This document shows positions 9,203 to 9,285 of a DNA stretch of 12,329 bases, in pieces (position 1 is the stretch's first letter; each line of letters starts with the position of its first letter). The notes under the pieces were generated by a model that saw only the letters and a list, made by a program, of their open reading frames with translations, ran no database searches and was not told where the DNA came from. The DNA is from Escherichia coli (GTDB lineage Bacteria; Pseudomonadota; Gammaproteobacteria; Enterobacterales; Enterobacteriaceae), in NCBI RefSeq assembly GCF_003334315.1, contig NZ_QOWR01000084.1, one strand, 5' to 3'. The position numbers and the translations under genes are program-made.

Positions 9203-9285
9203 GCCTGATGCGACGCTTGCCGCGTCTTATCAGGCCTACAAATGCTCCCCGTAGGCCGGATAAGGCGTTTACGCCGCATCCGGCA
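9203..9285. repeat. BIME: two REP (repetitive extragenic palindromic) units in inverted orientation between convergent ubiG and yfaL
   Basis: Seen: GCCTGATGCGACGCTTGCCGCGTCTTATCAGGCCTAC (9203-9239) and GTAGGCCGGATAAGGCGTTTACGCCGCATCCGGCA (9251-9285). Both are internally palindromic and match the canonical E. coli REP consensus as I recall it. Confidence 0.85.

Follow-up and report, generated by a model that had tools for sequence, protein, structure and literature searches.

REP163 of Escherichia coli, an inverted REP pair of BIME-2 type between the convergent genes ubiG and yfaL, and its variation among strains

REPs, or palindromic units, are present in hundreds of copies per E. coli genome. 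The features that define them include a GTAG motif 5' of the stem and a mismatch bubble within the stem, and three types (y, z1, and z2) are distinguished in E. coli (PMC3333891). These types combine into two classes of BIME: BIME-1, in which z1 and y units are joined by a long, IHF-binding L linker, and BIME-2, in which z2 and y units are joined by a short S linker, carry s, l, or r flanks, and are usually found in tandem arrays (PMC3333891). The yjdM-yjdN array REP325, whose units have been labeled Y-l-Z2 (PMC4550694), is both a partly Rho-dependent attenuator and a stabilizer of the upstream mRNA (preprint 10.64898/2026.03.23.713779). According to the same preprint, a REP is found in approximately 30% of the convergent gene pairs of E. 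coli (207 of 704), and in such pairs both genes are, on average, more highly expressed; the genome-wide half-life of REP-terminated mRNAs showed no difference, and short arrays of two to four hairpins showed no Rho dependence on plasmids. Term-seq has described a related arrangement, in which mRNAs terminated by Rho are trimmed by PNPase and RNase II back to a stem-loop that is stable and U-less, the rut site lying a short way downstream; REPs make up about one-quarter of these 3' stem-loops (PMC6061677). Further, REPs have been reported to stall terminating ribosomes and to lower translation, a role that, as the work of Liang et al. (2015) is represented in PMC12306157, needs the REP to lie no more than 15 nt from the stop codon.

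REPs are also acted upon as DNA. The TnpA-REP protein requires both the GTAG motif and the stem bubble in vitro (PMC3333891), and two insertion sequences, IS1397 (PMC1525189) and IS621 (PMC11208160), are documented as REP targeting. In addition, some BIME-2 elements show an enrichment of sites cleaved by gyrase, most of them within Y units (PMC6379681).

The window considered here, a 12,329-nt stretch of E. coli DNA, contains the convergent genes ubiG and yfaL, whose ends are separated by a spacer of 127 bp (9180-9306). The initial annotation had read this spacer as an inverted pair of REPs, at 9203-9285, that fills most of it, and both statements were borne out: each unit matches its REP consensus with no mismatch, and the pair accounts for 66% of the spacer (84 of 127 bp), or for 95 bp together with the flank at 9286-9296. 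The element is the annotated REP163, which spans MG1655 2340314-2340395 and thus window positions 9204-9285 (MG1655 coordinate = window coordinate + 2,331,110), within 1 nt of the span first proposed. It is entered in a supplementary table of the preprint as 'REP163, Convergent, 2340395-2340314, yfaL/ubiG' (10.64898/2026.03.23.713779). The RefSeq annotation NC_000913.3 lists no repeat features for the spacer, and our literature search returned no paper naming ubiG and yfaL together. The features of the locus, in window coordinates, are as follows.

9177 to 9179, plus strand: stop codon of ubiG (TGA), 23 nt before the start of the REP-A stem.
9193 to 9201, no strand: remainder of a head-to-head linker, CCGCGCCAA, from alignments and the junction census.
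9202 to 9239, minus strand: REP-A, TGCCTGATGCGACGCTTGCCGCGTCTTATCAGGCCTAC, a Z2-type palindromic unit; an imperfect palindrome whose GTAG is read on the minus strand, which makes it an 'iREP' with respect to the plus strand.
9240 to 9250, no strand: tail-to-tail linker, AAATGCTCCCC, 11 nt, of the short S type; a shortened relative of the REP325 linker AAATTCCCGCACCCTCC.
9251 to 9285, plus strand: REP-B, GTAGGCCGGATAAGGCGTTTACGCCGCATCCGGCA, a Y-type palindromic unit with a 5' GTAG, an AA/GC bubble, and the loop GTTT.
9286 to 9296, plus strand: 'l'-type BIME-2 head flank, ACCGTGCCGAC, equal at 10 of 11 positions to ACGGTGCCGAC of REP325.
9307 to 9309, minus strand: stop codon of yfaL (TAA on the minus strand), 22 nt from the end of the REP-B stem.
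9372 to 9500, plus strand: rut peak P_N10_2361, bound by Rho in vitro (MG1655 2340482-2340610; table of preprint 10.64898/2026.03.23.713779).

The stretch 9080-9420, which encloses all but the end of this list, matches BW2952, BW25113, and further strains at 100% identity. From position 4890 onward the window equals MG1655 base for base, with the exception of two SNPs within yfaL (10174, G for A, and 10546, A for G) and a total break after 12254. Because of the two SNPs, the source is K-12-like yet not MG1655 itself. The last 78 or so nucleotides (12252-12329) are the end of an IS3-family (IS2-like) element, and yfaL is therefore IS interrupted in the source strain. Exact copies of this terminal sequence are rare (103 records at 99% identity or above), and copies at 90-95% identity are common on both chromosomes and plasmids; a contig break caused by the repeat probably accounts for the end of the window. 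The yfaL frame stays open up to that point (1,006 codons without a stop). The ORF-list version of the gene (9307-12189, 960 aa) begins at an ATG at 12189 that is an artifact of the window edge and not the true start.

REP-A and REP-B have opposite orientations, such that CTAC (9236-9239, GTAG on the minus strand) faces GTAG (9251-9254, plus strand) over the 11-nt linker. When the GTAG-bearing strand of either unit is folded, the 2-nt AA/GC stem bubble appears as a 2x2 internal loop. None of 200 dinucleotide-preserving shuffles of the window matched the REP consensus, even with up to three mismatches permitted, and the consensus search revealed no other REP copy within the 12.3-kb window, including the sequence after the 'l' flank. 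The pair is typical of a high-copy family: a REP-containing query matched 6-50 places per genome (median at least 30) in every one of 5,426 complete E. coli genomes. By consensus, GTAG, bubble, extragenic site, and high copy number, then, both units belong to the REP, or palindromic unit, family. Among strains, the fourth base of the REP-B stem is polymorphic (GCCGGAT, GCCAGAT, or GCCTGAT). In strain 100181 the opposite arm of REP-B is altered as well (CATCCAGC), in a manner that is not compensatory, and in the short spacer allele, described below, a C:G pair higher up the stem is replaced by T:A, which is compensatory.

The class of the pair emerges from a comparison with REP325. The Y units of that array are identical to REP-B (35 of 35 positions), and its Z2 unit is REP-A minus one loop C, the extra C being present in REP-A. 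The 'l' flanks agree as listed above, and the tail-to-tail linkers share an AAAT start, although that of REP325 is 17 nt long as opposed to 11 nt in REP163. Because the Y unit, the Z2 unit, the 'l' flank, and the linker all compare with REP325, we assign REP163 to a minimal BIME-2-type unit and not to BIME-1. (An assignment of REP-A to Z1 was dropped, as the comparison with REP325 gives Z2.) Both the short linker and the flank following REP-B are those of a BIME-2, and on the head side of REP-A the long spacer alleles of other strains carry the linker ACCGCGCCAA; the tandem copies usual in this class are absent, K-12 having one pair only. The most fitting description of REP163 is thus a BIME-2-type unit that is minimal or eroded, and of its identity as a REP element of this type we are nearly certain. 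The Rfam model for naRNA4 (RF02564) yields hits of 54.4, 36.1, and 32.2 bits, all below its gathering threshold of 59.5; these hits reflect REP homology only, and the element is not a naRNA4 locus.

Being of BIME-2 type, REP163 is a candidate gyrase site by analogy with other members of the class. Neither the Topo-Seq supplement nor the RepRanger supplement contains an entry for the ubiG/yfaL locus. The initial annotation had found it noteworthy that a REP should lie beside a neighbor of gyrA. This position carries no evident meaning: REPs occur in 207 of 704 convergent pairs, the cleavage of some BIME-2 elements by gyrase is unrelated to the location of gyrA, and we know of no link between the binding of gyrase to BIME-2 and the position of the gyrase gene.

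As RNA, each REP is predicted to fold, whichever strand is read, into a hairpin of -21 to -22 kcal/mol. With both hairpins formed, the pair reaches -43 kcal/mol on the plus strand and -45 kcal/mol on the minus strand, within an overall range for the pair of -43 to -51 kcal/mol. Within 151 nt of sequence context, the minimum-energy fold is instead a single long hairpin in which REP-A pairs with REP-B (-61.9 and -64.8 kcal/mol; z about -4.6, with no shuffle folding equally well); during transcription, the individual hairpins would be expected to form first. No T-run follows any of the hairpins on either strand, and a terminator scan of the region returned no site. Since neither hairpin has a U-tract behind it, REP163 is not an intrinsic terminator. 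A promoter scan produced a single hit (9324-9353, inside yfaL), which is no more than shuffled sequences yield by chance.

How transcription from ubiG might end is suggested by published Rho data. The rut peak P_N10_2361, which derives from an in vitro screen, is in the ubiG sense, antisense to the 3' end of yfaL, and 87 bp downstream of REP163. It overlaps a transcript, 2340409-2344767, that is significantly bicyclomycin sensitive (10.64898/2026.03.23.713779). From the coordinates and the antisense label given in that table, we read this transcript as ubiG-sense read-through that runs antisense across yfaL when Rho is blocked, in which case Rho would normally shield yfaL from ubiG read-through. 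The plus strand is C rich and G poor over 9286-9463 (C/G of 1.6-2.1), and the ratio is 1.67 over the rut stretch, 9372-9500. A lookup of 3' ends in the data of Adams (2021) returned no entry for ubiG or yfaL.

Because the rut and bicyclomycin data fit both the Term-seq model and the preprint's findings on REPs, we take REP163 to be a two-sided 3' hairpin. Under the mechanism that we propose, the convergent genes would both be transcribed into REP163, which would place two stem-loops, of about -21 kcal/mol each, on either RNA strand. Without a U-tract, these hairpins would not terminate transcription efficiently on their own. On the ubiG strand, RNA polymerase would read through them and be released by Rho in the C-rich stretch 90-220 nt further on, after which the 3'-to-5' exonucleases PNPase and RNase II would trim the transcript back to a REP hairpin. 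That hairpin would then set, and protect, the steady-state 3' end of ubiG; the yfaL transcript, on the other strand, is presumed to behave alike, and REP163 may add some attenuation of its own. Toward this specific mechanism, 3'-end protection after Rho termination, we lean somewhat, and by a narrow measure.

The arrangement found in K-12 is only one of several. With a query made up of the flanks, the locus was found in all 5,426 complete E. coli genomes, with both flanks in one place in 5,309. Across these strains the number of REPs differs, the result to be expected of the strain comparison that the initial annotation had proposed. In an even sample of 60 records, approximately 57% of the spacers were 127 bp long, approximately 30% were about 140 bp, and approximately 10% were 60 bp. 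Junction-specific queries identified the exact K-12 junction in 1,863 genomes, a long junction in 1,715, and a short, single-REP allele in 626; the other genomes carry SNP variants of the K-12, long, or short junctions. Between ubiG and REP-A, the long alleles retain part of a third REP, of Y type, that we call REP-0: either ATTCATCCGGCAA or a small, folded GCCGGATACATCCGGC. Thirteen nucleotides of this remnant are gone in K-12, leaving a deletion scar between 9192 and 9193; at that point other strains have ATTCATCCGGCAA, REP-0's right half. Judging from these alignments, an older cluster of three REPs, Y-Z2-Y, has evidently been reduced to REP163.

In the short allele, the lone REP is a composite. 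Its left flank and left half, of which E. albertii shares 30 of 31 nt, are those of REP-0, and its right half and right flank are those of REP-B. A MAFFT alignment had equated this unit with REP-B, an assignment that we rejected when pairwise alignment with E. albertii showed the fusion of REP-0 and REP-B. Such a fusion is the product that would be expected of recombination between the directly repeated Y units; alternatively, the two-REP and three-REP forms may have arisen from a single Y into which a Z2-Y unit was inserted.

These alleles also differ in the distance from ubiG to the first stem. In K-12, the 13-nt deletion has left the first stem 23 nt past the end of ubiG, and on the other side the stem begins 22 nt from the yfaL stop; a stalling role with the 15-nt limit attributed to Liang et al. 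(2015) is therefore not expected. In the single-REP and folded-REP-0 alleles, the stem starts 8-10 nt past the ubiG stop (8 nt in the short allele). By placing a stem within the stalling range, natural spacer alleles might conceivably set the output of UbiG at different levels, a proposal that we rate as very doubtful. If it were true, the gain, loss, and erosion of REPs would constitute a strain-specific, non-coding control on ubiquinone biosynthesis.

Two records outside the main E. coli set provide further states of the cluster. E. albertii has an internally deleted REP-0, an intact REP-A, and a degenerate REP-B. In L063, a second species-representative record that bears the title E. coli, REP-A is intact and REP-B is reduced to its right half. 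One or more intact REPs follow ubiG in all E. coli alleles examined, in E. albertii, and in L063. The pair, on the other hand, is not under strong constraint, because there are genomes with one REP (626), a degenerate REP-B in E. albertii, and a half-deleted one in L063.

For a wider comparison, we drew on 80 of 596 confirmed UbiG relatives, a set without Salmonella and most Escherichia species, so that beyond E. albertii and Citrobacter only rough bounds can be put on how old the cluster is. Most of the sampled genera that lack both yfaL and a recognizable match to the REP consensus have a conserved, non-REP hairpin, ATTGCGCAGC...GCTGCGCAAT, located 20-60 nt past the ubiG stop and in some cases followed by a T-run (records L008-L010, L012, L014-L016, L018, and L078). 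The exceptions, without a conserved ordinary hairpin, are Kluyvera (L006) and Enterobacter BIGb0383 (L013). That a hairpin is constant and the number of REPs variable favors a 3'-hairpin role for at least one REP, and indicates that the REP pair as such is not required. Directly after the non-REP hairpin comes the conserved upstream region of nrdA; in its place, Escherichia has yfaL and the REP cluster. In Citrobacter werkmanii (L007, 739-835), from which yfaL is absent, ubiG is followed by one Y-type and one Z-like REP in head-to-head orientation, and CTACAAAT comes after the Z unit as it does in E. coli. These REPs in a genome without yfaL suggest that the presence of REPs at the 3' end of ubiG predates yfaL or does not depend on it.

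The element also has a mobile-DNA side, both as a repeat and as a target of insertion sequences. The GTAG and the stem bubble are kept in both REPs, and K-12 encodes rayT (RAYT); considered as DNA, REP163 is the relic of a mobile repeat and a plausible substrate of the RAYT transposase. An exact target of IS621, ATCAGGCCTAC, is present in REP-A (9229-9239). IS1397, an IS3-family element, is specific for REPs, and in strain ST2747 it is found in the loop of REP-B, in the arrangement GGCGTTT[IS1397]GTTTACGCC, with GTTT duplicated (L090, 2035-3466). Strain ZH063 (L092) has the same arrangement. In all, the locus-specific IS1397 junction, defined to include the unique linker, occurs in 65 genomes, some of them labeled O25:H4, which agrees with the flank-only query, where 72 genomes had split flanks. 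The initial annotation had described such elements as hotspots of IS insertion, and IS1397 provides an instance at this very site. In both ST2747 and ZH063, yfaL is annotated as a frameshifted pseudogene.

REP163 could instead be a selfish or neutral repeat that does nothing for its host here, no more than DNA that RAYT has dispersed and that is tolerated where two genes end. The copy number, which ranges between a single REP and two REPs with the remains of a third, and the deletions, half-REPs, and degenerate copies are what such a repeat would leave behind; REP-B split by IS1397 is tolerated in 65 genomes, O25:H4-labeled strains included, and no general effect on half-life was seen in the preprint (10.64898/2026.03.23.713779). 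A purely neutral repeat fits less well with the presence of at least one strong hairpin 8-35 nt past the ubiG stop in every allele and every related species examined, with the ordinary hairpin that REP-less genera mostly conserve after ubiG, or with the higher average expression of convergent pairs that bear a REP. We consider this reading unlikely, although it retains appreciable weight. The two views are not exclusive, since a repeat of selfish origin can also be put to use as a 3' hairpin.

The initial annotation had proposed that the REPs might act as terminators. This idea survives in a Rho-assisted or attenuating sense, given the rut peak downstream, but not in the intrinsic sense, as there is no U-tract. 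A bidirectional intrinsic (Rho-independent) terminator, the hairpins of which would release RNA polymerase on both strands, has in its favor the strong, GC-rich hairpins predicted for both strands, the 78 REPs that lie in predicted bidirectional terminators, and the attenuation of transcription by REP325 (10.64898/2026.03.23.713779). It is nonetheless improbable: no U run follows either hairpin on either strand, the terminator scan was empty, and the bicyclomycin-sensitive transcript starts at the spacer and continues antisense through yfaL, with the rut peak 87 bp downstream. Together, that transcript and the rut peak imply substantial read-through of the REPs.

IHF binding, also put forward in the initial annotation, is a feature of BIME-1 with its Z1 unit, long L linker, and IHF site. 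That REP163 is such an element (RIB/RIP), binding IHF to bend DNA where transcription units have their 3' ends, is so improbable as to be dismissed. Although it has the general RIB/RIP look of two inverted REPs at gene 3' ends, its Z unit is the Z2 of REP325 and not Z1, its 11-nt linker is not the L motif, and a consensus scan found the IHF consensus WATCAANNNNTTR nowhere in the window.

We therefore return to REP163 as a BIME-2-type unit that serves as a two-sided 3' hairpin, an account that, with identity and mechanism taken as a whole, we judge to be likely. The element is real, ordinary, and already catalogued. It has little import beyond annotation, being one catalogued copy of the best-known bacterial repeat family in that family's commonest setting. 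It does provide a worked example of REP biology: (i) an eroding three-REP cluster, which E. albertii has as well, with at least four allelic states in E. coli; (ii) a REP-specific IS caught in a REP loop; and (iii) a Rho site just downstream. These features make the locus a convenient natural allelic series for testing REP stabilization versus termination of convergent transcripts.

Set beside the systems described elsewhere, the element is the same as REP163 of E. coli K-12 MG1655, to which the window is identical here, with no difference at the element. REP325 (naRNA4), which matches it unit for unit, is far larger, with six Y-l-Z2 units and twelve REPs against a single Z2-Y pair, and it sits within an operon, whereas REP163 separates convergent genes. 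The REPINs of Pseudomonas, doublets mobilized by RAYT, likewise consist of inverted REPs with a short spacer and, as predicted for REP163, fold as a whole unit into a long hairpin; the arms of a REPIN, however, are copies of one sequence, and those of REP163 differ in class (Z2 and Y). Finally, REP163 resembles the 3' stem-loops of Rho-terminated mRNAs (Dar and Sorek 2018), in that its predicted hairpins are stable and U-less and a C-rich rut region lies downstream.
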